The notes beneath the pieces are model-generated. The model worked only from the letters and a program-made list of their open reading frames with translations. It did not search any database and was not told the origin of the DNA. From a virus (lineage: Duplodnaviria > Caudoviricetes), in the IMG/VR virus record IMGVR_UViG_3300020045_006302, positions 1 to 64,000 of that record: 64,000 nt of DNA. One strand, given 5' to 3'. Numbering within the stretch: position 1 is the stretch's first letter; each line of letters starts with the position of its first letter. The position numbers were made by a program, and so were the translations under genes. Below are positions 1 to 63,753 of this stretch, in pieces.

Positions 1-3000
1 GTAAACTACCTTTATTATCCCAAAATTTAAATGGTAATAAAACTTCTGAATATTTTATAGTTCCATCTTCATTTCTTGTTGTTTTTAATGTACCATCCCA
101 ATCCTTAGTAGTTATTAATTTTTGTGTATCTACGTTATCTATACTTACTATATTATTTCTACCTTGTCCTACTTCTGATACAAGTACAAAAGATTTACCT
201 CTTACTTTTAATTTTCTAATTCTATTATCAACTATTGAATTAGTTAATGAATTTAATTTAGAAGCATTAGCATTAAGATATAACGGAATTTCAAAGTCTG
301 TACCATTTTCATTTAGTGATAAACTTTCTAAATCATTAATATTATAACCTCTTGATACTCCTTCTTTTACAATTATATCTCTAAGTTTATTAATATTTAT
401 GGTTCCAGTTTCTTCATTGTAATCTAATTCTTTACGTAAATTTTCATTATGTAATTTATATAAATTACCCATATTCTCATTAAACTTTTTACCAATATCT
501 CTTCCCTTTAGAGAATCTCCAGTGAAAGGGTCTATAAATCCATCTACATTATGTAAATTAGTTAATATTAGTTTTACACGTTGTGAACCTATATTAATAT
601 CTTTTGATGTAGTACTATAAGGAACTTTTTGCTGTATTCCATGTCCTTCTCTTGGTACTTCTAATAAAGCTTCTTTCCAATTATCTGGTATAACTACTTC
701 TCCATTTTCATTAAATAAATTTATTACTGTAGAAGGCGCTCCTGATTTTACTGCCGATTTAAATGCAATTCTATCAATATTTTCAACTTCCATAAACCCT
801 CTTAAATCTTCTAATGGTGTACCATTTGTAAATTCTTTAGTAAGAGGAACGGCTGATGATTTTACATATAAAGGTGTATCTAATCCTTCTCTCATATAAT
901 TATTAAAATATAAAGGTTTAGTTGGACCTAATATTACTCCAAATTCTTCTAAATTTAAAGGTTTATCAGTATTATGCCTGTACATTATTTCATCTATAAT
1001 TTCTTGAGATAATCCTTCTTCTTTATTTTTAATTCTTAATGCCTCTTCTACTGTTACAAATTCTTGAGCATCTGCAACATTTATAGCATCATATCCTTTA
1101 TCTATTCCCCATTCTTTTAATTGTGCTAAATTTGTACTACCTTCAATTAAATCATTTATAACTAATAATTTAAAGTTTTCTCCTTTTTCAGATATAATTG
1201 TATTTTTAGTACCACTATGTCCTGCAAGACGTTTAAATTGATTATCGTTAGTCATTCTTGCTTGAGTAATTGCATTACTATTTACCTTATTAGCAAAGAA
1301 TGCAGGGTCACCTACAAACAATTGTTGAAAGTTCATATTAGCTACTAAATAATTAATAGTGTAATTAGTAAGAAGATTATTTATATTATCTCCATACTTT
1401 TCTACATATTGTTTATCTATTTTACTATATTTAATTTGTCCTGTAAATTCATCTACTTTTACAAAGCCTGTATCTAACCATTTATTATATTTTTTATCCT
1501 TTTCAGAATTAATATATAATCTTAAAGCTTCTTTAAGTAGATTTCTACTATCCTGACTTTCTCCTACTTCTGTTTTTAAAGATATTCGATTTCCATCATT
1601 ATCTTTTATCCAAAATCTATCTATATTATTTAATGCAGGAAACAGTAAGAAATTCATTGCACCATTCTTATACTCCTGTACTTTAATTTTATCAGGATTA
1701 TTTTGAAATTGTTTAATTCTATTTATTTCCGGCATTATTAGTATATCTACTAATTCTTCTAATTCAAAACTTGATAATCTACCGTCTATTAAATTATAAT
1801 TTTTACCTACTGTCGTAAATTGAATAAGTCCTGTTTTATCTGACATTGTAGGATATAAAAATCTATGTACTGGAAGTTTAGAAGCTTCTACGCCTCTATT
1901 AGTAAACATTCCTACTTTAAACTCTTCCATTTCTTTAGGAGTAAATCTTTCTATAGCTACTTTTTTATTATCATTAGAATAATAACTATCAGTATTATAA
2001 TCCAATGTATTGTATAATACACTATCTTTATTAATTACTCTATTTCCATTTTCATCTTCTTTAGTTAGCATTTCTAACCATTTAGAACCTCTTATAAATG
2101 GATCTTGTAATAATCCTTTTATTAAATCATTATCAGTCTTTAATTTACCAAATCTATCAATTACATATCTATTTGTAATATAAGCATAGTTATTGTTACC
2201 GTTACCATCTTTAAATGAATTTGCACTTAAATCTGTACGATAATCTGCAATAAATTTAGATAAATCTTTAAAGGCACTATCTGCATATAAATTCATTTTA
2301 TCTAAATCTAAATCTTTAGCTTCTCCTATTGCCAATTTTACTTTAGAAAATACATCATATCTTTCTTTAATATTTTTAAATACCCCTCCTGATTGTATAA
2401 AACTTTCTTTTAATGTTAATACATTATTTTTTCTTCTTACTCCATCTACTACCCAAGAATTAAATAATGATTGTGGAATTTCTATTCCTACGGATTTCAT
2501 CATTAAATCTAAATTTTCATATGTAAGAGGTAATTTTCCATTTAGTATTCTTGAATACATTTGATTAAAGTATTCAATTGCTTTTGGATTTATTACTACA
2601 ATATCATTTACTTTTACTAATATTCCTTTATGTAAATTATTTTGCCACTCGGAAATTACTAAATCAGGTACCTTTGAGGACGCATTTACAATAGGCACAA
2701 GCGACGAACTTTTACCGTCCTTATCGTAAGACGTTTTCAAAAAGATATGCTGCGTAGCCTGCCCGCTGAACGCTGTAACGAACATATTTTGCATTTCCTT
2801 ACTGGCATTTTCTAATTTATCGACTACATCATATAAATATGGTATTTGCTCTTGTTTAGTTCTTAAATATTCTATATAATTTTCTATAGTAGGATATATA
2901 TATCTTTCTCCATTAGTAGATAATAATCTTTTTAATGTTTTAAATACTTGGTCTTCTCCGGGATATACTGGATCTAAAAATTGATTTTTACGTTCTTTAT

Positions 3001-6000
3001 ATTCTGCTATTCCTTCTTTATTATAACTTACTCTGTAATCTATAATATCATTAAGGAATTTTTGTATTTCAGTTCGTAATTGAGTACGAGGGTCAATAGT
3101 ATATGCAGATGTATCTAAATATACATTCCTTTCTCCTAATACTTCATCTTGGTCAAAATCATTAGTATCATCTTCATTCTTTTCATCATTATTTTCATCT
3201 ATAGATTTTATAGTAGTAATATTATTAAATGTATTAAATCTTCTTTCTACAGATTGAATTAATAAATTTTTATTAGCTACTATACTATCAATCTGTATAG
3301 TCATATTTTCAGCCTGTGGATGATTACGTGCAATATACTTTTGTTTTACTGTTTCTAATGCTGCTAATTTAATTTCTACTGCTTTTACTATATCTACTGA
3401 TGGTGCTTCTTCTTTTACACTACTATCAATTAAATCTTGATATAATTCTGTAACAATAGCTTTAGTAAGATTTACTTGATTTTCTATAGATACTTTAGGA
3501 ATATATGTAGAGAATTTTAATAAATTATTTATAATTTTATTTTGTGGAGTATCTTCTTTATTTTCAATTACTTTTAATTCAGGTTCTAAAAATAACTTAT
3601 CAGGTAAATATACATATTCTGTATTAGAATTTTTATAATTAACTACATTTCCTGCTCCATCTACTCTATATGTATATACTTGTTTTTTCCTACTTTCTCC
3701 TTTTACTATTAAAGTATCATCTGATAACACTTCAATAGATTTTAAAATCAATTTATAATTATCTCCATCTTTATTTTCTACTTCAAATACTTTTCCAATT
3801 ATAGCAGGATTTATAGTATATCCTTCTGAATTTGTATTAGGAGATTGAAATTCCTCAGTTACATCATCTAATTCTGAATATTCTGTTTGTTGAGGTTCTG
3901 TAACATTTCCCTCTACAGAAACATCCATTGATTGAGTCAAAGGAGAAGCTATATCAAATTCAATACTACCTTGAATTGCATATATAGTTTTACCGTTATT
4001 TAATGTTATTCCTAAATGATTAGTTAATAAATTATCTTTTATAAAATCATTATAAGAAGTATATTCATTACTTATAGTATTATCATCATTTATAATGGGT
4101 AATGCAAATCTTTCAGAAGCTTTATTTATATCTAAGTTAATAAAAAGATTTTCAACATGATTTCTAAAAGAAGTTAATAACTCTTGTTTTTGTTCTTGTC
4201 CTAAGTTTTTATTTCTTTTTATTATTCCTACATTAATTCCTGCTCCTTCTCCAAATCTTATTTCTCCTTTTGTAAAATGTGTTATAAATACACCATCAGG
4301 TAAATTATTTAAATAATCTGTAAAATCTTGTTCAGTAGGTAAATTTTTATTTATACCATAAATAAATTTAGTAAGATATTCTTCTATACCTTTATTACTT
4401 AAAATATCTATTCCATATTCTTTTTTTATAGTTTCTACTGCTTCATTATTATTTCCATCTATAAAATATTCTACGGCTTTTAATATAGTACTTGTATATG
4501 CGTTTTCATCTGCATCTGTAAATCTTGTACGAGAAACAGGAATAGCTATTAAACTTCCATTATAAGTAGGTAATATTGCAACATTTGTTCCTTCATAAGG
4601 AAGTAATTCATTTGTTACAGGTATTACAGTATCTCTATTTATATATACTTTATTATTTTTAATAATTCCTACTTTAATATCAGGTATATTTTGAGATACA
4701 GGATTAAAATTACGAGTAGCATCTAAAATAGGTACACCTGGACCAACTCTTGTAACTTTAGTTTCAATTCCATTAGGAGAATCTAATACTAATCTACGAA
4801 ATTCTCTTAATGTATTTTGTTGTTTTTCTAAATTTTCTTTACTATTATTTACGTTTTGTATATTAACCCATGAAGTATCATGAAGATAAATACCATCAAG
4901 TAATTCTCCATCTACTATAATTCCTATAGGACTATCATCTACTGTAGAAATATCTGCAGATCTTACTGTTCCGTCTGCTAATTCTACTTCATCTAATGCT
5001 ACAAATTTAATAACACTTCCTTCTTTTATACTTCCATCTAATACTTTTTCAGATAAATTTTCATTAAGTAAATTATTAATATCTCCTTTAGTTACAGCTA
5101 TATAAGGATTATTATTTGCAGTTTTTCTTTCTACAAATACTTTACCATAATCTCTTGCTAAATATGCAATTTTATTATGTCCTTCTTCTCCTCTATAACC
5201 TAAACTATCAAATTCAAATGCACTATCTCTTGCATCTAAATTATTCATTTGTGCAAATTCATTTAATACTGTTAAACCAGCTTTAGATATTTTATCTATA
5301 TCAGATGTATATAATTCTGTATCTAAACTAAATACTTGAATATCTTTACTATCTTTTACTATTTTAACTTTCTTTGGTACATCATACATTAATTCTTCAT
5401 AAGAATCTGTAATATCTTGTTGAGTAGCTAAATTATACAAATGACGTAAAGGTATATAAACAGCTTGTACTTGTTCTTTATCTGTAGTATCTTCAAATGA
5501 TTTAATTACAGCTTTAAAATCTGATAATGATGTTCCTTCATTACGTAATAAACGTAATATATCAATCATTTTTTGTACACGAGGTTGAATATTAGTAAAT
5601 TCATCTTGTGTTTCTTCTTCAGCCGGACTATTTAATACATCATTAGATAAATCATCAATTAAGTCTTGTTGTTTTTGTGCTCTTATAGATATATTATCTG
5701 ATGCTACATTTAATTGAGAATTTAATTCTTGTTCTAATTTATTAACTGACTCTGTAAATTGTCCTATATTTTGTTTTATATTTATATCATTATTTACAGA
5801 AGAATTTATATACTCTTTTACTTTTTGTAATCCTTCTTTCTTTTGTTCTAAAGTTGCATTAGGATTTGAAATAAAAGCATTAAAATTAGTTATTAATCCT
5901 GATATAGCTTCATCTGAAGAAGGATTAAATAACTTAGATTGTATTTTACCTACTTCTTTAGTTTCTTGTGGAGTATTACTTTCAGGTAAATTTACATTAT

Positions 6001-8371
6001 CAGTTTTTGTGGAGGGTTCTGTAGAGGGAAGTGGTACAGGACTTGTTTCTTCTACAGTAGTTTCATTATTTACCTCATCAACTGTAACATTATCTCTTAC
6101 TAAAGTATCATTCATTGCTTTAGTAAATTGTTTACCTTTCTTTTTATCTTCTGTTACTGATTTATTTATTTGTTGTTTTTCTACTTTTTTACTTTCTCCT
6201 TTTTTATATTTATCTATAGCAGTACGTAAATTAGTTTGATATTCTTTAGTTGTAATATTTTTATAAGTATCTTCTAAATTTTTAATATTATTTTGATATA
6301 CTTTACTTGCTGTACTTAATGCTTTTAAATCTTTATAATATTGAGTTTTAGCAAATTCACTATTTAATACATTAATATCAGTTAATGTATCCATTGTTAT
6401 AGCAGGTAGAAATTCTTTTGAATTTACATAATATTCATTAGCTGATTCTAATACTCTATTAAATTCTCCTTGTATATATCCTAATATTTCTTTATTATCT
6501 TTTGCTTGTGTTCTATTAAAATATACCTCATTACTGTTTATATATCTTTGAGAATTATTATATTCTTTTTCTAATACTAATAAATCTTTTAAAGATTTAC
6601 TCATTTTAGTTTTATAAAAATCCTCTGTAGTTTCATCACCTGGTTTATATATACCTTTTGCTTCTGCTTCTTCTTGGGATAAATCTCTTAAACCTTTATA
6701 TACATTCTCTAAGTTATCTGTAGTACCAGTAGTAAATGCTTGTAAAGCTTGTGTATTTAATAAAGATGCTTCTAAAGTTTTTACTTTACTTACATTTCCT
6801 TCTTTTCTCGCTTTAGCAATTTCATTATATAATTTTAATGTTTCATCAGTATTATTCAATACTGTAATATTATCTGTTAAATTTTCTACTTTAGGTAAAT
6901 TATTTTGTTCTTCTAATATAGCTTGTTGTTGTACATATTGACGATTAAATTTATAATTATCTGATACAAATTTATTATTAGTACCTGCTTTTTCTAATGC
7001 AAATTGTTTAGCTTGTGAATCTTTTTGTTCATCAGTTAAATTTACATCTTTATTTAATTCAGAATATTTTTGAGTATATGCATTATTAAATTCAATATTT
7101 TTATGCATAGGTATTATTTTTCCTACTTTAGTTAAAGCTGTTTGTCCTGCTCCTCCTATTGCTCCTAATAATCCTGATTCAAATCCTTCTTCAGAAAATG
7201 CACGCATTAATCCATCTTTAAAAGTATAATTATCTGCATAGGCCCTATCTTCTCCTATGTCATTAATTGTTTCTTCTAAATATTCTTGTCCTGCTTCTAA
7301 TGCAGTTCCTTTAATACTATTTCCTATAGTCCTTGCTGCAAGTATATTCCTTGTTCCTCCTATTGGAGTATTTAATAGTGCATAGGCACTTGTTAAATTT
7401 AATAATATATTTGCTCTATTAAAATTAATAGCCTGTGATGCTCTATCTGCTGCATCTTTTCTTGCATTTATATCAGCTTGTTCAGGAGATAATCCTTTTG
7501 CCCTTTCTTCATCAAATTTACTTTTATATACATTATCAAATACATTTGCACCAATTCCTACACTTTCTGCTTGATTTAATAATAAAGAAGAGGCTAATGC
7601 ACTTCCTGCTCTTATACCTGCATTTGCTTCTAATGCTCCTTCTGCTACAGATAAACCTCTTAACCATTGTACAGCTTTTGCTCCTTTAGTAATTGCTCCT
7701 AATGATGCTCCACCTGTAGCCATACCTAATGCTACAAATGCACCTGCAGATGTTACTATTTGACTACCATTTTCAAACCAATAAGCTGCATCTCCAAAAT
7801 CCAATGGTTTATCAGGATTTTCTCTATATATAGGTAACATTTCATTTACATTTTGTTGTAATGATTGCATTCCTTTTGATAACCAGTTTCCTACTTCATT
7901 ATTAGTATTATAATAATCTTCTAAATCTAATACATTTCCAGTTTGTGCTACTATTTCAGGAATAATATTTAATACTGTTCTTCCTAAAGCATTACCGAAT
8001 TGTGACCAATTACTTTGTCTTTCTGCTCTTGTAGTATCTAATGCTTCTTTATTAGGAATAAATCCTATATTAGTTCCTAATATATCTTGATAATCTTCAA
8101 GGTCTATTTTTAAATCTCTTTCTGCACCTTGTTGATATTGTCCTCTTAATAATGAATTTGCTCCTTTAACTAAGAAACTATCATTTATTCCTGATTCTTT
8201 TTTAGGCTCTCCATTATCAGTATTATTAAGCTCAAAAAGTCCTAATGATTTAGGACTTTCTGTTGTTGCTTTTTTAGGTGGATCTATTGTTGGTAATTCT
8301 TGTACAGGAGTTTCTGCTTGTGTTAAAGTTTGGTCTTGTACTTCGCTATTTATTATATTATCTTCTTCCAT
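1..8371 (-). CDS. Giant virion-packaged RNA polymerase (crAss-like vRNAP polyprotein), 5' part; truncated by the window edge
   Basis: ATG at 8371 overlaps the TAA of the upstream gene. The ORF track lists no minus-strand fragments in 1-8370, consistent with one ORF lacking a stop in the window. Hand translation in the same frame gives FQQLFVGDPAFF, NQFKRLAG, VADAQEF, GPTKPLYF, IDRIAFKSAVKSG and HGIQQKVP, which I recognise from crAss-like/phi14:2 vRNAPs. The catalytic DxDxD motif is presumably beyond base 1. The frame was spot-checked, not translated end to end. Confidence 0.85.
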   Translation of the reverse strand, partial: MEEDNIINSEVQDQTLTQAETPVQELPTIDPPKKATTESPKSLGLFELNNTDNGEPKKESGINDSFLVKGANSLLRGQYQQGAERDLKIDLEDYQDILGTNIGFIPNKEALDTTRAERQSNWSQFGNALGRTVLNIIPEIVAQTGNVLDLEDYYNTNNEVGNWLSKGMQSLQQNVNEMLPIYRENPDKPLDFGDAAYWFENGSQIVTSAGAFVALGMATGGASLGAITKGAKAVQWLRGLSVAEGALEANAGIRAGSALASSLLLNQAESVGIGANVFDNVYKSKFDEERAKGLSPEQADINARKDAADRASQAINFNRANILLNLTSAYALLNTPIGGTRNILAARTIGNSIKGTALEAGQEYLEETINDIGEDRAYADNYTFKDGLMRAFSEEGFESGLLGAIGGAGQTALTKVGKIIPMHKNIEFNNAYTQKYSELNKDVNLTDEQKDSQAKQFALEKAGTNNKFVSDNYKFNRQYVQQQAILEEQNNLPKVENLTDNITVLNNTDETLKLYNEIAKARKEGNVSKVKTLEASLLNTQALQAFTTGTTDNLENVYKGLRDLSQEEAEAKGIYKPGDETTEDFYKTKMSKSLKDLLVLEKEYNNSQRYINSNEVYFNRTQAKDNKEILGYIQGEFNRVLESANEYYVNSKEFLPAITMDTLTDINVLNSEFAKTQYYKDLKALSTASKVYQNNIKNLEDTYKNITTKEYQTNLRTAIDKYKKGESKKVEKQQINKSVTEDKKKGKQFTKAMNDTLVRDNVTVDEVNNETTVEETSPVPLPSTEPSTKTDNVNLPESNTPQETKEVGKIQSKLFNPSSDEAISGLITNFNAFISNPNATLEQKKEGLQKVKEYINSSVNNDINIKQNIGQFTESVNKLEQELNSQLNVASDNISIRAQKQQDLIDDLSNDVLNSPAEEETQDEFTNIQPRVQKMIDILRLLRNEGTSLSDFKAVIKSFEDTTDKEQVQAVYIPLRHLYNLATQQDITDSYEELMYDVPKKVKIVKDSKDIQVFSLDTELYTSDIDKISKAGLTVLNEFAQMNNLDARDSAFEFDSLGYRGEEGHNKIAYLARDYGKVFVERKTANNNPYIAVTKGDINNLLNENLSEKVLDGSIKEGSVIKFVALDEVELADGTVRSADISTVDDSPIGIIVDGELLDGIYLHDTSWVNIQNVNNSKENLEKQQNTLREFRRLVLDSPNGIETKVTRVGPGVPILDATRNFNPVSQNIPDIKVGIIKNNKVYINRDTVIPVTNELLPYEGTNVAILPTYNGSLIAIPVSRTRFTDADENAYTSTILKAVEYFIDGNNNEAVETIKKEYGIDILSNKGIEEYLTKFIYGINKNLPTEQDFTDYLNNLPDGVFITHFTKGEIRFGEGAGINVGIIKRNKNLGQEQKQELLTSFRNHVENLFINLDINKASERFALPIINDDNTISNEYTSYNDFIKDNLLTNHLGITLNNGKTIYAIQGSIEFDIASPLTQSMDVSVEGNVTEPQQTEYSELDDVTEEFQSPNTNSEGYTINPAIIGKVFEVENKDGDNYKLILKSIEVLSDDTLIVKGESRKKQVYTYRVDGAGNVVNYKNSNTEYVYLPDKLFLEPELKVIENKEDTPQNKIINNLLKFSTYIPKVSIENQVNLTKAIVTELYQDLIDSSVKEEAPSVDIVKAVEIKLAALETVKQKYIARNHPQAENMTIQIDSIVANKNLLIQSVERRFNTFNNITTIKSIDENNDEKNEDDTNDFDQDEVLGERNVYLDTSAYTIDPRTQLRTEIQKFLNDIIDYRVSYNKEGIAEYKERKNQFLDPVYPGEDQVFKTLKRLLSTNGERYIYPTIENYIEYLRTKQEQIPYLYDVVDKLENASKEMQNMFVTAFSGQATQHIFLKTSYDKDGKSSSLVPIVNASSKVPDLVISEWQNNLHKGILVKVNDIVVINPKAIEYFNQMYSRILNGKLPLTYENLDLMMKSVGIEIPQSLFNSWVVDGVRRKNNVLTLKESFIQSGGVFKNIKERYDVFSKVKLAIGEAKDLDLDKMNLYADSAFKDLSKFIADYRTDLSANSFKDGNGNNNYAYITNRYVIDRFGKLKTDNDLIKGLLQDPFIRGSKWLEMLTKEDENGNRVINKDSVLYNTLDYNTDSYYSNDNKKVAIERFTPKEMEEFKVGMFTNRGVEASKLPVHRFLYPTMSDKTGLIQFTTVGKNYNLIDGRLSSFELEELVDILIMPEINRIKQFQNNPDKIKVQEYKNGAMNFLLFPALNNIDRFWIKDNDGNRISLKTEVGESQDSRNLLKEALRLYINSEKDKKYNKWLDTGFVKVDEFTGQIKYSKIDKQYVEKYGDNINNLLTNYTINYLVANMNFQQLFVGDPAFFANKVNSNAITQARMTNDNQFKRLAGHSGTKNTIISEKGENFKLLVINDLIEGSTNLAQLKEWGIDKGYDAINVADAQEFVTVEEALRIKNKEEGLSQEIIDEIMYRHNTDKPLNLEEFGVILGPTKPLYFNNYMREGLDTPLYVKSSAVPLTKEFTNGTPLEDLRGFMEVENIDRIAFKSAVKSGAPSTVINLFNENGEVVIPDNWKEALLEVPREGHGIQQKVPYSTTSKDINIGSQRVKLILTNLHNVDGFIDPFTGDSLKGRDIGKKFNENMGNLYKLHNENLRKELDYNEETGTININKLRDIIVKEGVSRGYNINDLESLSLNENGTDFEIPLYLNANASKLNSLTNSIVDNRIRKLKVRGKSFVLVSEVGQGRNNIVSIDNVDTQKLITTKDWDGTLKTTRNEDGTIKYSEVLLPFKFWDNKGSL

Positions 8372-11389: not shown

Positions 11390-13054
11390 TTATATACCTA
11401 TTAGTGATTTTAGTAATGGATTATTTTTTGCTCTTTGTCGAATATAAGGATTTAATCTATATTCTCTTTTCTTTTGTCCTGTTATATCATTTTGTAATTC
11501 AGTAAGAAGTTCATTATCATCTTGTGTTAATATTGCAGACTTTTGTCCCATTTGACTAATATCTTCTGCAAAGTTATTTATATTAGCTGAAGTTCTTGCC
11601 AATCTTCCTGCTGTATTTGCTTGAACTCTATCTTGATAATCACTAAAAATATTATTATTTTGTGTTTCATTTCTATTTTGATATTCTTTATTTCTATTTT
11701 CTAATTGAGTTTGAATATTATTTTGATTTGCATATACATCTGATAATTGTTGAGAACCTCTTAATCTTGTTGCAGCTATATTTGCTCTTGCTATATTACT
11801 ATTAGATGTATTACTCATCACATTATTAGCTGTAGCTTCTACTGCATTTTTAACTGCTGCTACTTGTGGATTTACATTTACTCGTGTATTTAATCTAACA
11901 GGAGAATTTAATATAGGTTTAGGTACTCTTGGACTTGCAGCATTTATTATGGCATTTCCTATATTATCTATTCCTAATCTTAAAAAATCTCCCCCTTTAT
12001 CAGAATTTGCATCATAAGGAGAAACTTCTTTAGGAAGTACATCAGGAATAATAGTAGGTAAAGGTGCTACTATTGGTTGAGATTCTGTAGCTAAAGTATT
12101 TTCATTAGGATTATAAGTAGTTGAAGGAAATAACTGCTCTTCATATGTTTTTCTAAATCCATAAGGGTCTGTATTTTTTCTTATAGGTCCTCCTAATGCT
12201 AATTTATCTAATACTTGCATTCCTTCTATTTCTTTATGTAATTCTTGTTGTTTAAATAAACTTTCTTCTGCCATATTTAAACCTGCAAGTTGTCTTTCTA
12301 CTGTATTTTTACTTACTGTAGTAAGTTTACCATCTAACCTTTTTTCTAATGTATTTCGTTTTGATGTTACTTTTTTCATTTTATCTGCATAAGTATTTTT
12401 ATTATCAGCCATTAATCTATTACTAAATACAGCTTGTCCATCAGCAATTACTTCTCCGTCTTCTACTTCTGCAACAGGTTGTCCATTTTCAGATAAAGTT
12501 ACACCATAAGAATTATCTATAGTTTTTTCTCCATGTTCATTTCCTACTACTTCTTGAACTCCTTCTGCTAATGGTTTTAATTTTCCTCCTGTTGTTTGAA
12601 ACTTCCCTATAGAAGAATCTTCCAGCAATGCTGATTTATCTATTAATCCTCCTTTTGCGTAATATTCTACAGTATCTTGTCCTACTGTATTTTTATAATC
12701 TTCTGCAATTATTCTATCTTGATTAGTTCTTTGTCCCCACATAGCATTCATTGCTGCTTGTTGTTGAGCCTTTTGTTTTTTTCTTGCCATTTCAGAAGAA
12801 AAAACTCCTGTAACTAATCCTACTCCTGCTCCTACTGGGCCTCCCATGCTTGCTCCTGATACAGTACTACTTAAAATAGTTCCTGCTTGTCCTTCTGCTA
12901 ACCCGCTTGAAGATATAAAAGCAGAACCTTTTTCTAATCCTTCTCTATTATCTAATAGACTTTTTGGACGTTCTTTATCCCATTTTTCATCTCCTATATT
13001 ACTTCCAATTATATTAGCTGATATATGTCGTTTTCTACTATTTAGTCTTTTCAT
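11390..13054 (-). CDS. Ejection cargo protein with glycine-rich membrane segment
   Basis: 554 aa; GASMGGPVGAGVGLVTG segment and HGE...GV...AEVEDGEVI motif, as in crAss-like cargo proteins; position between muzzle and vRNAP. Confidence 0.55.
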   Translation of the reverse strand: MKRLNSRKRHISANIIGSNIGDEKWDKERPKSLLDNREGLEKGSAFISSSGLAEGQAGTILSSTVSGASMGGPVGAGVGLVTGVFSSEMARKKQKAQQQAAMNAMWGQRTNQDRIIAEDYKNTVGQDTVEYYAKGGLIDKSALLEDSSIGKFQTTGGKLKPLAEGVQEVVGNEHGEKTIDNSYGVTLSENGQPVAEVEDGEVIADGQAVFSNRLMADNKNTYADKMKKVTSKRNTLEKRLDGKLTTVSKNTVERQLAGLNMAEESLFKQQELHKEIEGMQVLDKLALGGPIRKNTDPYGFRKTYEEQLFPSTTYNPNENTLATESQPIVAPLPTIIPDVLPKEVSPYDANSDKGGDFLRLGIDNIGNAIINAASPRVPKPILNSPVRLNTRVNVNPQVAAVKNAVEATANNVMSNTSNSNIARANIAATRLRGSQQLSDVYANQNNIQTQLENRNKEYQNRNETQNNNIFSDYQDRVQANTAGRLARTSANINNFAEDISQMGQKSAILTQDDNELLTELQNDITGQKKREYRLNPYIRQRAKNNPLLKSLIGI

Positions 13055-36716: not shown

Positions 36717-36770
36717 ATTATTTTATTTAAGTTCTTTAACATTTCCCTATAGAAAGACTATCAGATAAAG

Positions 36771-42460: not shown

Positions 42461-42813
42461 AATGTTGTTGTAGATAATTAAATTTTACTAATTTATTATG
42501 AAAGTAGGAGTGGATAAGTAGACTCAAGATAATAATACGTACGCCAACACGTTATTCCTTATCCTCTACATAATTCTACTCCTACACATTCATACACAAC
42601 TCAAATAATACTACAATTCTCACATTTACACAATTCTCACAATAATTCAAAATTACTTCAAATTCTTCAAATTTTTAATAAAATTAAATCACAACCTACA
42701 ACAATGCAATCAAAATACCCTAAAATACTCAATAAACTAAAATAAAAATAATACGAAAATCACTACAATAATACAAATTTACACATAATCCAAAATAATA
42801 CTTAAATTATTAA

Positions 42814-42849
42814 AAATTCTTTAAGTTTTTAAGGTTTAGCTTCACTCAT
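42814..42849 (+). repeat. Right copy of the 36-bp imperfect inverted repeat
   Basis: aaattctttaagtttttaaggtttagcttcactcat; 31/36 identity to the reverse complement of 39980-40015. Confidence 0.7.
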
Positions 42850-48405: not shown

Positions 48406-48578
48406 CAACTGGTTAGTAATAGGCACATTGAGTGCTGAAATTGGGCATGTGAGCCATTAATTTGGTCGTAGTATAGTTAGGTGTGGTTATTTAATTTGCT
48501 TGCCTTACATCGAAGATTTTAGCATTCTTTATGCTTTCCCAATAGAAAGATAATCAATAACTTAAATATATAATAAAA

Positions 48579-48980
48579 ATGATTAATGTAAATTCAATTA
48601 ATTTATCAGCAGGATTAATACTTGTAGACGTAGATGAAGCATATAAAGTAGTAGAAGCTAAAAAAAGAAATAAAGCAATAAGTAATACTATTACTACGGG
48701 AGTTGTTATTTCCGATGCTCAAATAGATGAATATGGAAGAAAACAACAAATGCGTACAGGTAAAGTAATGAAAATGTCTAATGACGTAAAAGAAACTTTA
48801 AAGGTAAGAAAAGATGGACTGGAAGTTCTTGTAGAGGGAAGCGTTATAGTCTTTAATGCTTTAGCAATGGAAACATTTGATATACCTATATATGAAGAAT
48901 CCGGAGAAGTAAGAAAAGAATTTAAAAATACTGCAACAATGCATATTAACTCTGTAATTGCAGAATTAAAAAATGAATGA
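48579..48980 (+). CDS. GroES/Cpn10-like co-chaperonin
   Basis: ILVDV...TTGVVISD...KQQMRTGKVMKM...EGSVIVF...HINSVIAEL parallels GroES VLV/TAGGIILPD/KPQEGEVVAV/VGDKVLF/EDDILAI. Confidence 0.55.
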   Translation: MINVNSINLSAGLILVDVDEAYKVVEAKKRNKAISNTITTGVVISDAQIDEYGRKQQMRTGKVMKMSNDVKETLKVRKDGLEVLVEGSVIVFNALAMETFDIPIYEESGEVRKEFKNTATMHINSVIAELKNE

Positions 48981-53344: not shown

Positions 53345-55633
53345 ATGATATTTTTTGTTACTAAAAATACAGATTATTATAAAAAAGCCTTCTATGGACA
53401 ACTATTTAAAGATATAACTGTATTAACAGAACAAGAAGGTAAAGAATTATATTTTAAACATTTTGCTAAAAAAAGAATATTAGCATTTGACTGTGAAGCT
53501 ACTGGATTAGATTCTTATTTACTTAATCCTATATTATATGGATTATCTACTAAAACTATACAATTAATGTATGATTGGACTGCAGATGTTACATATGCTT
53601 TTAAAAATATAAGAGAGTATAATACAACTATGCTTGGTCATAATTTATTATATGATTTTAGATTAGTAAAAGTACATGTAGGAGTAGAATTAGATAAATG
53701 TTATGATACTATGCTTGCTGAACAACGACTTTATATGCGTTTAGGATATGAAATGGGATTAGCAGCATTAATTAGACGTTATTTAAAGAAAGAAGTAGAA
53801 AAAGAAGTAAGAAATGAATTTATAGGTGCAAATTTAGAAAAATTTAAAATTGCACCTCATCATTTATATTACCTAAAACAAGACCTTGTAGATTTATTTG
53901 AAATAAGAGATAAACAGAGGGTTCAAATTAGGAATTATAAAATGGAATTTCTCATATATGGAATTGAATTTCCATTAATGCGTGCTATAGCAGAAGCAGA
54001 ATTAAGAGGATTTGTACTTAATGTTGAAAAATGGAAAGAAAGAATAGAAAATGAGAAAAAAGAACTTTTTGAATTACTTTGTACTGTAGACCAACAAGTA
54101 AGAGATTTAAGAGATGAAATAGGAAAGTTAAATCCTGAAGTACGTATGAAATTATCAGGAGGAAAATATGATAATATAAGGAAATATAATCCTTTATATG
54201 ATATTTTCAAACCTGATGGAACTACTACAGAAATAGATTTATTTGGAAATTTTGCTACTAAATTAGGACTTACTAAAGTAAAGAAAAAAGTAATATCTTA
54301 TCCTAACAATACTAATTATAAATCTCCTGTTCAATTAATAAGAATATTTGCAGCTTTAGGTTATCCATTATTAAATAAAGCAGAACAATTTGAAGTACCT
54401 ATTATAAGAAATAATAAAATAGTAGGAGGAAATAATAAGTTTATGCTTAATGAAAAAGCTTTTAATAAATATCTTATATTAAAACCGGATACAGACCTTA
54501 AAGATTTTATAACTAATATTATAAAAATAGGTAAAATAAAAAAATCTTTAGATACTTATGGAGAGTCTTTTATAGGATATATAAATCCTATTACTGGTAG
54601 GCTTCATACTGTATTTAGACAATGTTTTGCAGATACTGGAAGATTTCAATCAGGAGGTGGAGATAAGCAACCTGATAAACCTAATTTCCAAAATATTCCT
54701 AAAACTAAAGAATATAGAGAAGCTTTTACAACAGATACAAGTAAATATATGATATGTACTTCTGATTATTCAGGAGCAGAGTTATTAGTAATGGCTTCTC
54801 ATGCACAAGATTTTAAACTAATAGAATTAAGTAAACAAGATATGCATTCATATATGGCACAACGATGTTGGAGAACTATATATAAAAGTAGAGCATATAA
54901 TTTATATTTAAAAATTACATCAGGATTATTAGGTCCTGGAAAACTATTAGAAAAACTTAAAGACGAATATAGAAGTTATAAAAACTTATCTGAAACATTT
55001 ATAGTAAGTAAAGAAGAAAATAAAAAAGTTAGAGACGGTTTTAAATCTCAAACATTTGGTATAATATATAGAATGTATGCCAAGAAAGCAGGAGAAACTA
55101 TAAATGTAAGTAAAGAAGAAGGACAAATTACTATAGATGTTGTTAAAGCTGAATTACCGTTAACAAGTGCTATGGTTGATGAAGCTGTATATAATGCAGT
55201 AAATAATGGATTTTTAATATTAAATGAAAGAACTAATTCAAGAGCATGGTTTCCTGTACTTATTCAAAAATTAAAAGGAGTAATTACAGATAAAACTCAT
55301 TTTATGCAAATTTCTAAAGAAGAAGGTGCGGCAGCTAATTCAAGAATGCAAGGAACTCAAGCAGATTTTGTAAAAGAAGCTACAGTAATCTTAAGAAAAT
55401 TTATTAAAAAGAATGGAATAGATGCAAGAATACTTAGTTGGGTACATGATGAAATTATAGATGAATTTCCTAAAGAATATGCAACATCTAATGGAAGGTT
55501 CTTCTATAGGGAAAGGGTATTTGATAATTATCCTGATTTCAAGACACATATAATGGAAGATGTAGCTAATAAATATTTAACAAATGTAACTATAGAAGTA
55601 GAAACAACAACATTACCTTATTGGACTAAATAA
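53345..55633 (+). CDS. polA: DNA polymerase, family A, with 3'-5' exonuclease domain
   Basis: FDCEATGLD, GHNLLYD, TGRFQS...PNFQNIP, SDYSGAEL (motif A), R...KSQTFGIIY (motif B) and WVHDEII (motif C). Confidence 0.95.
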   Translation: MIFFVTKNTDYYKKAFYGQLFKDITVLTEQEGKELYFKHFAKKRILAFDCEATGLDSYLLNPILYGLSTKTIQLMYDWTADVTYAFKNIREYNTTMLGHNLLYDFRLVKVHVGVELDKCYDTMLAEQRLYMRLGYEMGLAALIRRYLKKEVEKEVRNEFIGANLEKFKIAPHHLYYLKQDLVDLFEIRDKQRVQIRNYKMEFLIYGIEFPLMRAIAEAELRGFVLNVEKWKERIENEKKELFELLCTVDQQVRDLRDEIGKLNPEVRMKLSGGKYDNIRKYNPLYDIFKPDGTTTEIDLFGNFATKLGLTKVKKKVISYPNNTNYKSPVQLIRIFAALGYPLLNKAEQFEVPIIRNNKIVGGNNKFMLNEKAFNKYLILKPDTDLKDFITNIIKIGKIKKSLDTYGESFIGYINPITGRLHTVFRQCFADTGRFQSGGGDKQPDKPNFQNIPKTKEYREAFTTDTSKYMICTSDYSGAELLVMASHAQDFKLIELSKQDMHSYMAQRCWRTIYKSRAYNLYLKITSGLLGPGKLLEKLKDEYRSYKNLSETFIVSKEENKKVRDGFKSQTFGIIYRMYAKKAGETINVSKEEGQITIDVVKAELPLTSAMVDEAVYNAVNNGFLILNERTNSRAWFPVLIQKLKGVITDKTHFMQISKEEGAAANSRMQGTQADFVKEATVILRKFIKKNGIDARILSWVHDEIIDEFPKEYATSNGRFFYRERVFDNYPDFKTHIMEDVANKYLTNVTIEVETTTLPYWTK

Positions 55634-55646: not shown

Positions 55647-56102
55647 ATGATAAATGAAAAAGAATTAATAAAAAGAAACTTAAAAATACCCCTTCCCTCT
55701 ACAAGAACTATCAGAGATTTACCTGACGGAATTACAGCTATTCCTGTATATAAAAAATCTTATGTACTTTTAGATAAAGTAATAGAAATAAATTCTACTA
55801 CATTACAATTACAAAGAGTAATAGAATTAGATAAAGAATATCCTAAAGCAATTATAGGATTTCATCCTCCTTTATTTAAAGATTTTATAAATAAAGACAA
55901 TACTATAAATACTCATGTTAATGTAGGGGAAACTGTAGTATTAGGATTAAAATTTAAAAATGATAAAAATCCACCAAGAATTGTAAAAGAATTATATTTT
56001 ACATCATTAAATAGTATTACTGTAATTATTGCTAAATTAGATAATGAAGATTATTATCCTTCATACTTTTTAGAAAAATACATAGAACCTGATGCAAGTT
56101 AA
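55647..56102 (+). CDS. Hypothetical protein
   Basis: 151 aa ORF. Confidence 0.55.
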   Translation: MINEKELIKRNLKIPLPSTRTIRDLPDGITAIPVYKKSYVLLDKVIEINSTTLQLQRVIELDKEYPKAIIGFHPPLFKDFINKDNTINTHVNVGETVVLGLKFKNDKNPPRIVKELYFTSLNSITVIIAKLDNEDYYPSYFLEKYIEPDAS

Positions 56103-60885: not shown

Positions 60886-60896
60886 AATGCCTTAAT

Positions 60897-61145
60897 ATGA
60901 ATACTATAATAGGAGTAATATCAAACATAGTGGATGTTTCTGTAAAGGGAAAGGATAAAAAACTAATCGTAGATTTATCTATAAACAGAGAAGTATTATT
61001 TATAACATTTAAACACAATCTACAAATGTTTACAAATTATAAACAAGGAGATAGAGTTAAAATATCTTTTACTTATAATGGAAGTATTTATAAAGGAAAA
61101 TATATTAATAATATTAATGGACATTCAATAAGCCTTGAGCAATAA
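60897..61145 (+). CDS. Small OB-fold protein (DUF3127-like)
   Basis: F..YKQGDRVKISF...G..YKGKY.NNI.G..I pattern. Confidence 0.55.
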   Translation: MNTIIGVISNIVDVSVKGKDKKLIVDLSINREVLFITFKHNLQMFTNYKQGDRVKISFTYNGSIYKGKYINNINGHSISLEQ

Positions 61146-62253
61146 AAAGAACGTTTTTCCTGATTTAACAAAGAAATACATTTTAGATAGAATTTCACAA
61201 GAAAGACTAATGGAATTTTATACAGAAATACCTGTAATTGATAAACATTTTACAGGTAATTCTTTTTTATCTCCATTAAGACCGGATAATAATCCTACTG
61301 CAAATTATTATTATACAGATACTAATAAACTAAAATTAAGAGATTATGGAATTAGTTTTAATGGTGATGTTTTTGATGTAATATCATATTTAACTAAAAT
61401 AAGTATTAAATCTTCACAAGGATTTGTATTATTACTTCATAAAATAGCTTCAGATTTTCAAATACATAAATATGAAAGTAAGGAAGAAAGAGATATACTT
61501 AATTTAAATGTAAAAAATTATGTAGAAATTAAATCACTAAAAGGATATAAAGTAGTACCAAGAAAATTTAATAAAGTAGATTATAATTACTGGACTTTAC
61601 AATATGGTATTACTCAAGACATGCTTAGAATAGCTAAAATAATACCTATAGATGAATTATATATTACAGATTTTAATGGATTTTTTTATAGAAGATATGT
61701 ATATAGTAATAATAATCCCGGATATGCTTATTACGGAGGAACAGAAAATGGAGTAAATATATGGAAATGTTATTTTCCTTTTTCTACAGATAAAAAAAAG
61801 AAATTTACTACCAATAAATCCTTTATACAAGGAGAACATATGTTAGTTCCTGCAGAAATATGTGTATTAACAAAATCTTATAAAGATGTACTTTGTTATA
61901 AATCATTTGGAATACAGGCAGTCGCAGTAGCGTCAGAAAGTAGTTTACCAGATAAAGATTTTATATTTAAATTAAAAAGTTATTACAATGTAGTTATCTC
62001 TAATATGGATTATGATACTGCCGGTATAAAACTTTCTAACAAACTAAAAAAAATTTATAATATACAGCCAGTAATGTTTACACAAGGTAAATACGGTAGT
62101 ATTAATTATGGAGTAAAAGATTTTAGTGATTTTATAAAACTATATGGTAGAGAAAAAGCATTACAATTGTTAATAATGACAATAGGTAATTATAGAGAAG
62201 ACTTAGATAATATAAATATAATTAATTATAATATTTTAAAAGATATTAAATGA
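61135..62253 (+). CDS. DNA primase (crAss-type, TOPRIM)
   Basis: SPLRPDNNPT, +RDYG....GDVFD, LTKSYKDV, SE, MDYDTAG and KDFSDFIK motifs. Confidence 0.85.
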   Translation: MSNKKNVFPDLTKKYILDRISQERLMEFYTEIPVIDKHFTGNSFLSPLRPDNNPTANYYYTDTNKLKLRDYGISFNGDVFDVISYLTKISIKSSQGFVLLLHKIASDFQIHKYESKEERDILNLNVKNYVEIKSLKGYKVVPRKFNKVDYNYWTLQYGITQDMLRIAKIIPIDELYITDFNGFFYRRYVYSNNNPGYAYYGGTENGVNIWKCYFPFSTDKKKKFTTNKSFIQGEHMLVPAEICVLTKSYKDVLCYKSFGIQAVAVASESSLPDKDFIFKLKSYYNVVISNMDYDTAGIKLSNKLKKIYNIQPVMFTQGKYGSINYGVKDFSDFIKLYGREKALQLLIMTIGNYREDLDNINIINYNILKDIK

Positions 62254-62597: not shown

Positions 62598-62609
62598 TAA
62601 AAGTATTAA

Positions 62610-63044
62610 TTGAATATGAAAGCAATTAAATTAAAGATATTAAGGAGCAAAGAAGAAGCATTCATGTATGCACTTCTTCCCTGTACAGAATCATCCATTG
62701 AAGCTACGAGAGTAAATAAAGGCTTAGATAAATCTATATTAGATTTTGCAAGAGAACAAAATATAATAACTTTTGACCAAGATATAGAAGGAATATATTA
62801 TTTAGGAGAATTAGATAAATTTTCTTCATATGGACAATTAGTATATAAATTTCCATTAACTAAACGTCAGATAGTAGATAAAAAGAAAGAACAATTTAGA
62901 GATTATGGAATGGATATAGAAAAACAAAAAGAATATATGCATTTAGTAATTTTATGTTCATCTGCGGCAGTAAGTTGGAAAACAGCAATAAAAGCATCAG
63001 GAAGTAAATTTGGAGTAATATGTAAAGTAAAACTACATGGATAA
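62610..63044 (+). CDS. Hypothetical protein
   Basis: 144 aa ORF; the start is TTG, with ATG two codons later. Confidence 0.55.
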   Translation: MNMKAIKLKILRSKEEAFMYALLPCTESSIEATRVNKGLDKSILDFAREQNIITFDQDIEGIYYLGELDKFSSYGQLVYKFPLTKRQIVDKKKEQFRDYGMDIEKQKEYMHLVILCSSAAVSWKTAIKASGSKFGVICKVKLHG

Positions 63045-63753
63045 AATAGTTTATGTTACTATAGAGGAAAAAATAGATAAAATAGATTTAAAAAATAATT
63101 ACTATTATTATGATAAAATACATCAAGAATCTATAGCAGTAATTAATAATACAAAATTACCTAATAAATATCTAATAAATAAAGAAGGAAATACAAATAA
63201 ATTAAATATTAAATTTCCTTATGGTATTGGTATATTTGTAAAAAGTAGATTACAAGTAGTAGAAGGTTATATAGATAAAAACAATAAAGAATATAATAGA
63301 AAAGTAGGAGAAGAAAGAGTAACTTATTCCGATTTTCCATTAGTATATAAAATTATTAATACAATAACAAAAGAAGTATTAGAAGTAATACCAACAAATA
63401 AAGAAGAATTTGATTATAAACCTTTAATCAATGAATTGAAAGACTTTCTAAAGGGAAAGGATGATGTAGAAATAGTATCATTAGTAGGTAATCAATTAAA
63501 AATAAAAGTGAAAATGAATTTAGTTGCAAAATATGCAGGAAGAGTTATAGAATTAAGAAAAGACTTAGAAATACATAAAAAAGGAGAAAGACTTACTATA
63601 GATAAAATAGAATTAGATACTATTGAAAAAGGTAAAGGAATTAAAATATATTTTGATTTAGGAGAAGAATCTTCTGTAGAAGAAATTAATGATGCTCCTG
63701 GAAATTGGAAATATGAAACATGGTTAAGTAAAAACATTAAAATAATTTATTAA
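63037..63753 (+). CDS. Hypothetical protein
   Basis: 238 aa ORF. Confidence 0.6.
   Translation: MDKIVYVTIEEKIDKIDLKNNYYYYDKIHQESIAVINNTKLPNKYLINKEGNTNKLNIKFPYGIGIFVKSRLQVVEGYIDKNNKEYNRKVGEERVTYSDFPLVYKIINTITKEVLEVIPTNKEEFDYKPLINELKDFLKGKDDVEIVSLVGNQLKIKVKMNLVAKYAGRVIELRKDLEIHKKGERLTIDKIELDTIEKGKGIKIYFDLGEESSVEEINDAPGNWKYETWLSKNIKIIY

Follow-up and report, generated by a model that had tools for sequence, protein, structure and literature searches.

Among known asymmetric DNA signals that recur through a phage genome are the promoters of phage-encoded RNA polymerases. The promoters of T7, T3 and SP6, and those used by gp96 and gp64 of the Thermus phage P23-45, are asymmetric duplex signals of ~23-27 bp. 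Phage RNA polymerase promoters are present in ~15-25 copies per genome, some of them inside upstream genes, at positions that are kept despite respelling; the T7, T3 and SP6 promoters keep their positions in this way while their spelling changes. For single-subunit two-barrel phage RNA polymerases, gp96 and gp64 of P23-45 set a precedent for motif promoters (bioRxiv 10.1101/2022.12.01.518664). A second kind of dispersed word is the nick motif of T5/BF23, phiKMV-like and tf/LUZ24-like phages, which also runs through genes, occupies similar positions in relatives with lineage-specific spelling, and for which nickase-site co-evolution has been proposed; known nick motifs measure 7-19 bp, are confined to a single strand and have an uneven spread, all 14 nicks of tf being on the top strand (PMC3517423). 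Chi, KOPS and DNA uptake sequences are likewise orientation-specific, found genome-wide including genes, and dependent on genome coverage.

The Crassvirales include the most abundant human gut phages and are common in soils and seas. To our knowledge, the giant virion RNA polymerase that they carry has no described promoter, nor has their replication mode been described. The one crAss-like phage with mapped transcript 5' ends is phi14:2, whose early transcripts, made by the virion RNA polymerase, share no common motif and whose middle and late genes are transcribed from promoters of the host type (bioRxiv 10.1101/2020.03.07.982082). Here we describe a dispersed word in a complete Crassvirales genome of 84,575 bp, whose first 64,000 nucleotides form the window. 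The phage belongs to an environmental clade with a capsid ~33% identical to that of gut crAss phages. Our searches found no cultured relatives of this phage, and no published description of such an element in crAss-like phages was found in the literature.

The element is an asymmetric word of ~27 nt, from -5 to +21 relative to its core, with the consensus TA.CC YTTCCCT.TASARARAC..YCA, which reads ..GTYTYTSTA.AGGGAAR.. on the reverse complement. The copies align without gaps, with conserved blocks at fixed spacing and no dyad over the 27 nt, and information is present outside the 12 nt used for finding them. The word TTTCCCTHTASA occurs exactly 11 times in the window, where 0.05 occurrences are expected (maximum in 100 shuffles, 1), and the scores of a position weight matrix (PWM) are bimodal, with ~25 sites at 20 bits or more and almost none at 12-20 bits. 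The complete genome holds 25 copies, 14 on the plus and 11 on the minus strand, and 19 of them (11 plus, 8 minus) fall in the window (Table 1). An earlier sequence-only reading had reported a ~21-bp asymmetric motif dispersed in 17 copies, nine plus and eight minus; every position it quoted holds a copy, and dispersal, asymmetry and presence on both strands stand, while its length and count were too low.

Table 1. Motif copies and candidate readers in the window. Copy coordinates span 27 nt, and positions quoted in the text, such as 39355, are core starts. Co-directional and antisense describe the reverse complement of the motif relative to the gene.
Feature	Coordinates	Strand	Remarks
Giant virion-RNAP-type ORF (part)	2..8371	-	Candidate reader; no stop across contig junction
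Motif copy	496..522	+	Core 501-512; inside giant vRNAP ORF; co-directional; 24.8 bits
Motif copy	3901..3927	+	Inside giant ORF; co-directional; 34.8 bits
Motif copy	6010..6036	-	Giant ORF, ~aa 784; antisense; G001 antisense copy maps 14 nt away
Motif copy	12597..12623	+	554-aa gene, ~aa 147; co-directional; G001 and G002 copies at homologous Gly-Lys-(Phe/Tyr)
Weaker motif copy, TCTCCCTATAGAAAGTA	18258..18284	-	Antisense; 20.2 bits
Motif copy	19291..19317	+	Co-directional; next start codon (19254) 46 nt downstream
Weakest accepted motif copy	27760..27786	+	14.5 bits; co-directional; 162 nt upstream of next gene
Motif copy	31400..31426	-	Antisense; 48-bp inverted pair with 31458; variable N-terminal region of 433-aa protein
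Motif copy	31453..31479	+	Co-directional; N-terminal region of 433-aa protein; G002 homologue has co-directional copy at aa 45
Intergenic motif copy	36737..36763	+	Co-directional; 30 nt upstream of polynucleotide 3'-phosphatase gene (36252-36716)
Arm-switch motif copy	39350..39376	+	Faces structural arm; 53 nt upstream of first gene (start 39306)
Arm-switch motif copy	39792..39818	-	Faces early/replication arm; with 39355 part of 57-nt inverted repeat
Intergenic motif copy	48530..48556	+	Antisense; 40 nt upstream of 133-aa gene; counterpart G001 4378; far end of motif-free early block
Motif copy	48820..48846	-	Co-directional; inside 133-aa gene; counterpart G001 4095
Motif copy	55493..55519	-	Co-directional; DNA polymerase A, variable part of C-terminus; G001 80580 maps at 9 nt distance
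Motif copy	55687..55713	+	Antisense; 49 nt into gene after PolA; G001 80378 in homologous gene
Motif copy	60931..60957	-	Co-directional; near DUF3127 gene start; 187 nt upstream of primase gene
DnaG/Toprim-type primase	61135..62253	+	Alternative candidate reader; 49% identical in G001
Motif copy, CTTCCCTGTACAGAATC	62671..62697	+	Antisense
Motif copy	63437..63463	-	Co-directional; 238-aa gene

Nineteen of the 25 copies are genic and six intergenic (8.9% expected, p=0.02), and they sit where proteins tolerate sequence, in variable segments, gene ends and gaps. Synonymous-codon shuffling reduces the genic copies from 18 to ~1; when codons are shuffled in this way within genes, loose-core copies number 6.9 on average against 24 observed, a mean that includes the six intergenic copies left untouched. 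The motif enrichment therefore survives the codon-preserving check that the sequence-only reading had called for. Its statement that the genic copies use different reading frames holds with a qualification: the frames do differ, but one is barred by a stop codon, and the Gly-Lys frame (GGG AAA) is used by 8 of the 10 classified genic copies with the reverse complement on the coding strand. A peptide motif is ruled out by the intergenic copies, the differing frames, the occurrence on both strands and the loss of genic copies in the shuffles. As had been claimed, then, this is not a protein motif: it is a DNA-level signal under selection, private to the phage lineage and strand-specific.

Relatives with capsids 50-69% identical carry the same element respelled (TTGCCTTTAG..., TTGCCCNTAR...TTCGT, TTCCCGAAAGA...), often at homologous positions and in the same orientation. 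These versions were recovered by a mismatch-tolerant search. The PWM built on the studied genome gave no matches in the relatives, an exact-pattern scan of IMG/VR returned single chance matches only and no contig with several PWM matches, and exact 10-mer counting in the relatives yielded only Leu-Glu-Glu/Asp codon runs. Common to all spellings, on the reverse complement, are a pyrimidine run, TA(N), GGG or GGC, then AA. Of 23 mappable sites, six have a counterpart at the homologous place, where 4% would be expected (p=2e-4), site positions being individually conserved across proteins only 30-50% identical, and in a relative's homologous copy a synonymous GGG-to-GGC change lies over a conserved Gly-Lys. 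Strand counts are 9:11 in G001 and 10:5 in G002, and in two further relatives, L127 and L129, the gap upstream of the polynucleotide 3'-phosphatase gene contains a copy in a spelling of its own. That relatives keep respelled versions at homologous places is the best evidence for a sequence-specific reader of a DNA-level signal, and it supports the earlier proposal of such a reader. The specificity of the reader would drift, so that all the sites of one lineage are respelled together. In phi14:2 we found no comparable word and no clear arm-switch pair.

The orientation of the copies relative to genes is weakly biased overall, 37:23 in three genomes: the reverse complement is co-directional with genes in 16 cases against 9 in the studied genome, which is not significant, 11 against 9 in G001 and 10 against 5 in G002. 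The earlier view that there is no orientation bias by arm was thus roughly right. The spacing along each strand is even, with a CV of 0.29-0.41, whereas random placements average ~0.73-0.91 by series (Fisher p=7e-12). This evenness is independent of gene direction, each strand forming its own well-spaced series. When an exclusion at the observed minimum same-strand gap is imposed, the evenness p is only 0.02-0.2 per strand, which shows that much of the evenness arises because same-strand copies avoid each other. We do not claim strict periodicity, the minimum same-strand distance explaining part of the evenness. All 15 close pairs are inverted, with separations of 48-526 bp, and in 11 of the 15 both copies face away from each other when read on the reverse complement.

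A divergent pair is found at the gene-arm switch of every relative with a resolvable switch, each copy facing its own arm (39355/39802 in the studied genome, 10690/10809 in G001, 55620/55777 in G002, and also in L130, L081, L082 and L083). Where measured (studied genome, G001 and L130), the first start codon follows the G-run at 42-58 nt, and in L127 (133/333) the first called gene contains the inner copy. Between the two copies lies a hairpin-bearing non-coding stretch, and the 8.7-kb early block contains no internal copy. The same-strand repulsion, the inverted close pairs, the positional conservation in relatives and the arm-switch pair all go beyond the sequence-only reading.

Most plausibly the reader is a phage-encoded factor, and we favour a start site of the phage's own RNA polymerase. 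Our leading interpretation, with a probability of about 0.35, is that RNA synthesis by a phage-encoded enzyme starts at the element, which would be a promoter-like signal (...YTATA|GGGAAR...). Fixed ungapped spacing together with the lack of hairpin covariation points to recognition of duplex DNA. A phage-encoded factor would thus recognise the duplex, and the reverse-complement strand, 5'-..GTYTYTSTA.A|GGGAAR GG.TA-3', would be the start site for RNA synthesis, with recognition by the pyrimidine-rich part, melting of the AT-rich 4-mer and start on the G-run. The likely enzyme would be the crAss-type two-barrel RNA polymerase of the giant ORF, or a factor directing that polymerase; both the RNA start at these sites and the identity of the enzyme are what we infer from the genome. 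Sense transcripts may arise from ~60% of the copies, namely the outward arm-switch pair, the copy before the 3'-phosphatase/packaging operon and copies up to ~200 nt upstream of genes, while the other ~40% would give antisense or non-coding starts, possibly for interference, duplex opening or priming of DNA synthesis. No tRNA or Rfam family was found in the genome, and antisense copies driving tRNAs or known non-coding RNAs are therefore rejected.

Several observations count for the promoter-like reading. The motif shares with T7-group promoters an AT-rich 4-mer followed by a G-run, and matches to the T7 and T3 promoter cores, CTATAGGGA or CTAAAGGGA, are seen in 13 of 24 copies when these are read on the reverse complement. 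The arm-switch pair also counts, as does a co-directional copy that precedes the 3'-phosphatase gene by 30-41 nt in the studied genome, L127 and L129; another such copy precedes the gene at 69260-69796 and its G001 homologue. A start codon follows within 200 nt in 8 of 16 co-directional copies (21.5% expected, p=0.011). Moreover, no other promoter type stood out: the Bacteroidota -33/-7 pattern gave 1 match against 3.6 expected, a sigma-70-like pattern 128 against 151, no sigma domain was found in the genome's proteins, and no separate signal precedes the capsid gene in four genomes. Finally, the DFDxD catalytic motif of phage-encoded two-barrel RNA polymerases is present as DFDVD at genome position ~84378, in the giant ORF crossing the contig junction, although this ORF gave no direct sequence match to solved structures.

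Other observations count against it. The orientation bias is weak, 19 of the 25 copies are genic and five lie deep in the giant ORF, the early block is empty, and the copies form well-spaced series on both strands regardless of gene direction, which ordinary promoters do not. In contrast to T7-type promoters, 40% of the copies are antisense to genes, and conservation runs ~12 nt past the putative start, further than in phage RNA polymerase promoters. No T7-like RNA polymerase was found: PF00940 had no match in six frames, a search of unproven sensitivity since control genomes likewise gave no signal, and Pfam scans showed no ORF of the expected size and family. The resemblance to the T7/T3 cores would then be convergence. 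The lack of a comparable word in phi14:2, despite the same kind of RNA polymerase, also counts against, as do the motif-free early transcripts and the host-type middle and late promoters of that phage.

Unlikely, but the best placed of the alternatives, is that the motif marks site-specific single-strand interruptions of the kind seen in T5, phiKMV-like phages and tf, with a phage nickase cutting packaged or replicating DNA once per site on the motif-carrying strand. From the 3'-OH ends the family A polymerase could begin synthesis with strand displacement, or the nicks could relieve torsion. Published nick motifs run through genes in the same manner, at similar positions and with slightly different spellings in related phages (PMC3517423). 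The strand-by-strand spacing rules fit a process acting on one strand, and the phage and its relatives encode end-healing and sealing enzymes, the polynucleotide 3'-phosphatase and an ATP-dependent DNA ligase (63976-65241, 50% identical in G001). However, the motif is 27 nt long, even, and distributed 14:11 over both strands, unlike the known one-stranded nick motifs, and opposite-strand copies as near as 48 bp would give two close nicks on opposite strands. No conserved nickase was found either: the sole recognisable candidate nuclease, an HNH protein (65250-65693), is rejected as reader because G001 and G002 lack it but possess the motif system, and no GIY-YIG domain was found. A GyrB-like ATPase, also lacking in G001 and G002, is rejected as reader too.

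The strand-wise spacing could also reflect a replication signal, the copies being strand-specific start or loading sites for DNA synthesis through a primase, a primase-helicase or a primer made by RNA polymerase, with one entry point every 6-8 kb per template strand and the close divergent pairs acting as small bidirectional origins. The even series and the inverted, mostly outward-facing pairs suit this idea, as does the conserved arm-switch pair flanking a hairpin-bearing non-coding stretch, where origins are typically located; starting on a G-run behind an AT-rich 4-mer would suit a primer no less than a transcript, and the primase is conserved. We nevertheless find it improbable: primases are known to read three to a few bases rather than 27, redundant origins should tolerate loss whereas the sites are individually conserved in position, the evenness comes largely from same-strand avoidance, and phi14:2 has a primase but no comparable word.

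The sequence-only reading had offered either a DNA-binding protein or a phage RNA polymerase as reader; the second now leads, and we give as little credit to the first as to replication. Here the binding of a phage protein would serve genome folding, partition, condensation or pacing, and no synthesis would begin at the sites. A long asymmetric element, dispersed genome-wide at protein-tolerant locations and weakly linked to gene direction, would suit such a role, and a dimer could bridge the inverted close pairs. Against this, no DNA-binding family was recognised among ~50 proteins scanned. HU/IHF (PF00216) and NUMOD1 (PF07453) domains, proposed earlier as binders, were not found in any frame, and although about one third of the copies read WATCAR at +17..+22, the TTR positions of the IHF/HU consensus WATCAANNNNTTR carry no information. 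The suggested resemblance to a Noc half-site is not supported, since NBS and parS are 14-16-bp palindromes for a ParB-fold dimer whereas the motif is asymmetric over 27 nt. Chi, KOPS and uptake words differ as well: they are 5-12 nt, host-read, identical across related genomes and replichore-skewed, while the motif is long, lineage-private and not skewed by arm. Furthermore, architectural sites should be redundant, yet individual positions are conserved, and copies whose position 30-58 nt ahead of first genes is conserved suggest control at the level of the gene.

A polar barrier or terminator, at which a bound protein would block, in the manner of mTERF or Tus-Ter, any RNA polymerase or replication fork coming from one direction, appears decidedly improbable. 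Copies in the motif orientation on the coding strand would then mark unit ends, and the replication termini of R6K and B. subtilis are inverted pairs of asymmetric 20-30-bp sites. In post hoc counts, 8 of 22 antisense copies lie within 90 nt after a stop codon against a rough 10% expected, and co-directional copies lie before start codons. But the order "antisense then sense" along transcription is 12 against 10, which is not significant, ordinary hairpin-plus-T terminators occupy other gaps (10 against 3.2 expected), and several copies are mid-way in a 15-kb gene.

The two weakest accounts have very little left to them. A mobile or recombination element, be it a MITE- or REPIN-like inverted doublet or an invertase crossover site, to which close copies always inverted and 48-526 bp apart might point, is largely refuted: the genome has no serine or tyrosine recombinase (PF00239, PF00589), the interiors of pairs belong to conserved genes and are coding sequences unrelated to one another, distant relatives have their sites at homologous positions, the genic copies keep the frame and leave no trace of insertion other than ordinary variable segments, and the motif departs from REP, REPIN and MITE repeats, which are extragenic and have a conserved interior and variable insertion sites. 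An element acting in RNA, as a processing or stability hairpin or a small-RNA target, is just as improbable: many copies can form a 5-8-bp A/U-rich hairpin on the reverse complement (CUUUCU-AUAG-GGAAAG; mean MFE -5.3 against -3.8 kcal/mol in shuffles), and one L127 copy is a 7-bp stem followed by T10, in a gap where L081-L085 have a plain terminator, but the stem register shifts between variants without covariation (three copies combine C at position 0 with A at 13), what is conserved is the ungapped sequence spacing, 40% of the copies are on the wrong mRNA strand, there is no Rfam match, and neither the stable covarying stem nor the U tract required of intrinsic terminators is present, no T run following the weak A/U-rich stems.

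Taken more broadly, it is conceivable, though we hold it unlikely, that crAss-like phages of several families share an undescribed system in which a phage-encoded enzyme reads a private 20-30-nt word, maintained at good spacing on each strand, and starts nucleic-acid synthesis there, as primer and/or transcript RNA or as a nick-primed strand. The genome would then be copied or opened from about two dozen fixed and strand-specific entry points, with close divergent pairs as small bidirectional origins. A 27-nt word held at ~25 fixed places and respelled by lineage offers a testable handle on the step at which enzyme and DNA recognise each other. If the copies are nick or priming sites, they would represent a new way of organising phage DNA synthesis. 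Should they prove to be promoters, they would be without precedent for a polymerase of the crAss type and would provide orthogonal promoter/polymerase pairs in many spellings. Under either reading, the spelling of the motif offers an easy means of assigning uncultured crAss-like genomes to lineages.

The dispersed motif, an asymmetric element whose G-run is read on the reverse complement, is best understood (probability about 0.85) as a DNA signal that is strand-specific, private to the phage and recognised by a phage factor co-evolving with it. All copies quoted in the sequence-only reading were present on re-check. The core TTTCCCTHTASA has 11 exact matches in the window against 0.05 expected, and 22 against 3.4 with one mismatch allowed; a looser core occurs 24 times in the genome. 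PWM scores are bimodal and define a discrete family of 25 sites in the genome, 19 of them in the window. In an ungapped alignment, information extends beyond the 12-nt selection core to T/A at -5/-4 and C at -2 and -1 (positions relative to the core), while downstream +12 to +15 favour purines and A, +16 favours C and +19 to +21 favour YCA, which makes the element about 27 nt long. The enrichment survived codon-preserving shuffling, in which synonymous codons were exchanged gene by gene: a mean of 6.9 copies remained, including the 6 intergenic copies that the procedure leaves untouched, while genic copies fell from 18 to about 1. Since copies are also found between genes, in differing reading frames and on both strands, the word is not a peptide motif; the earlier claim to that effect is thus borne out, also by the loss on shuffling.

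The phage is assigned to Crassvirales and has a GC content of about 26%. Its contig is complete, with 84,696 bp and a 121-bp terminal overlap, leaving 84,575 bp of unique sequence of which the window is the first 64 kb. The minus strand carries the genes from 39306 down past position 1 as far as 77758, and the plus strand those between about 39.8 and 77.65 kb; among the products are a Toprim primase, a DNA polymerase of family A and helicases of the SF1 and SF2 types. Among 5.8 billion sequences the closest capsid protein shares 69% identity, and in GenBank the closest phages, gut crAss phages, share about 33%, which places the phage in an uncultured environmental clade. The giant ORF is free of stops from 8371 over the contig junction, at least to genome position 84001, and would be one protein of about 5,060 aa if it shares its frame with the 77758-84468 ORF. 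Its homologues in the related genomes G001 and G002 have 5,234 and 5,920 aa, respectively; in the Cellulophaga crAss-like phage phi14:2, separate genes code for the RNAP (g066) and for its neighbours. No tRNA genes were found in the whole genome, and a scan of it against Rfam gave zero matches at gathering thresholds.

Features of the phage genome discussed in the text (L131 and L143 are pieces of the same genome)
Feature	Position	Strand	Remarks
Giant ORF	window 2-8371, over contig junction to genome 77758	-	DFDVD RNA-polymerase signature near 84378
Hairpin directly after capsid gene	window 28723-28757		15-bp, perfect, bidirectional, with T runs
crAss-type major capsid protein	28778-30304	-	
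Polynucleotide 3'-phosphatase	window 36252-36716	-	heads packaging/capsid operon in all relatives
AT-rich word TTATATTATTTTCATA	window 39731-39746, 39755-39770, 39947-39962		three copies near rightward arm-switch copy
40-nt inverted repeat	39980-40019 with 42810-42849		85% complementary, brackets first early genes
ATP-dependent DNA ligase	genome 63976-65241 (L143:77-1342)		50% identical in G001
HNH endonuclease	genome 65250-65693 (L131:1250-1693), outside window		PF01844, E=2.8e-10
GHKL/GyrB-like ATPase	genome 65710-67818 (L131:1710-3818), outside window		702 aa, adjoins HNH gene

In relatives, our PWM gave zero matches over the homologous 20-kb regions. When over-represented 12-mers were sought with mismatches tolerated, each relative proved to have its own, different word, with an identical build throughout: in motif orientation, TTTCCCGAAAGAAGAA in L127, TTYTCCCGATAA in L129, TTTGCCTTTAR in L130, L081 and L123/G001, TTGCCCWTAR in L082, L083 and L085/G002 (G002 adding TTCGT further on), and TAAGCCGARAGG in L086. 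On the reverse complement, the shared build is a pyrimidine run followed by TA(N), GGG or GGC, and AA. Single copies, such as TTGCCTTTAGAAAGAACTATCG in G001 compared with our TTTCCCTATAGAAGAACC and CTTCCCTCTACAAGAACTATCAG, show that the elements are homologous. TTGCCYWTAR occurs 15 times in the 83-kb G001 genome and its reversed control not once. Furthermore, one statistic places the words found in our genome, G001 and G002 at the top of the non-trivial matches (p 1e-12 to 1e-16), and by it phi14:2 has no comparable word.

The places of the copies are conserved as well. Every relative with a resolvable arm switch, the junction between the minus-strand structural arm and the plus-strand early/replication arm, carries there a divergent inverted pair, separated by 110-450 bp, in which each copy points to its own arm; ours belongs to a 57-nt inverted repeat. 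The G-run lies 42-58 nt ahead of the first start codon where measured (our genome, G001 and L130), and the inner copy of L127 falls within the first called gene. A co-directional copy, whose reverse complement runs with the gene, is found in the gap 5' of the 3'-phosphatase gene in our genome, L127 and L129. The L127 copy itself forms a 7-bp stem followed by T10, and in L081-L085 this gap (e.g. L083:9480-9555) has a classic hairpin-plus-T terminator and no dispersed motif.

When sites of G001 and G002 were placed on our coordinates via protein alignments, 23 genic sites were mappable, and 6 of them have one of our sites in the same orientation at a distance of 6-44 nt, where 4% per site would be expected (p=2e-4). 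Position-conserved sites include an antisense and co-directional pair at a 133-aa gene, a site in the PolA C-terminus, an antisense site around aa 780 in the giant protein, and one over a Gly-Lys-(Phe/Tyr) that all three genomes conserve, spelled synonymously as GGG AAA in ours and GGC AAA in G001. Some sites are common to G001 and G002 and absent from ours, and the protein segments hosting genic copies are variable and indel-rich. Conserved places with lineage-specific spellings indicate that the sites are old, each held by selection, and respelled jointly in each lineage.

Gene direction is followed with a weak bias, the ratio of co-directional to antisense copies being 16:9 in our genome, 11:9 in G001 and 10:5 in G002 (37:23 overall). 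Strand alternates between neighbouring sites in 43 of 59 transitions. Along each strand, the spacing is far more even than random (CV 0.29-0.41, with random placements averaging about 0.73-0.91 depending on the series; Fisher p=7e-12), and when both strands are pooled it cannot be told from random. Copies on one strand keep at least 2.5 kb apart in our genome, 4.0 kb in G001 and 1.5 kb in G002. A simple model with a minimum distance alone accounts for much, not all, of the evenness (p=0.02-0.2 per strand). There are 15 pairs closer than 550 bp, where a Poisson estimate predicts roughly 8; every one of them is inverted, and in 11 the two copies point away from each other when read on the reverse complement. 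In our genome, 6 of 25 copies are intergenic (p=0.02), 11 of 25 have a start codon within 100 nt (p=0.009), and 8 of the 16 co-directional copies have one within 200 nt downstream (p=0.011). Antisense copies of the three genomes, counted post hoc, gather just past stop codons (8/22 within 90 nt), and an antisense-then-sense order is not significant (12 vs 10).

As to mechanism, we tentatively propose a promoter-like signal at which phage-encoded RNA synthesis would start, because the core reads CTATA|GGGA or CTAAA|GGGA, with equivalents in the other spellings, because in each of the genomes examined an outward-facing pair stands before the genes that open the two arms, because conserved copies lie 30-60 nt ahead of particular genes, and because no other promoter type is recognisable. 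Moreover, two-barrel RNA polymerases of P23-45 use motif promoters (bioRxiv 10.1101/2022.12.01.518664) and offer a precedent. Host-type promoters are not enriched, and no separate signal was found 5' of the capsid gene in four genomes. Three points argue against ordinary promoters and keep other readings alive: copies follow gene direction weakly, spacing obeys a rule strand by strand, and phi14:2 lacks the word. That the copies are nick sites is unlikely, and that they are replication start or loading sites, or else architectural sites, is slightly less likely still. A mobile or recombination element is largely excluded. So is an RNA-level element: a short A/U-rich hairpin could fold in many copies when they are read on the reverse complement, yet the stem register differs (TATAG vs CTACAG variants), energies are modestly lower than those of shuffles, and no covariation exists across copies. 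The conserved feature is the ungapped spacing between sequence blocks, which points to recognition as duplex DNA.

Conserved candidates for the reader are the giant RNAP protein, the primase, the polymerase, the helicases and many small family-less proteins. HU/IHF and NUMOD1 proteins, put forward as binders from sequence alone, receive no support, as a search for these domains found none; nor does the genome contain a detectable T7-like RNAP, sigma domain, serine/tyrosine recombinase or GIY-YIG domain. The HNH protein and the adjacent ATPase were rejected as readers, being accessory genes without homologue in G001 or G002; they resemble an accessory or mobile island. The DNA ligase and the 3'-phosphatase form an end-healing and sealing pair.

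Other signals accompany the element. A hairpin or terminator equivalent to that behind our capsid gene is kept in L127, L129 and L130. The 8.7-kb early block has zero copies of the main motif, and the AT-rich repeats together with the 40-nt inverted repeat may constitute a separate early signal.

Our literature search found no published description of such a signal in Crassvirales, the nearest phenomena being phage-RNAP promoters (bioRxiv 10.1101/2022.12.01.518664) and nick-associated motifs (PMC3517423). Strand alternation, per-strand evenness, lineage spelling and positional conservation all hold in this environmental Crassvirales clade, where the joint respelling within a lineage implies a phage-encoded reader with drifting specificity.
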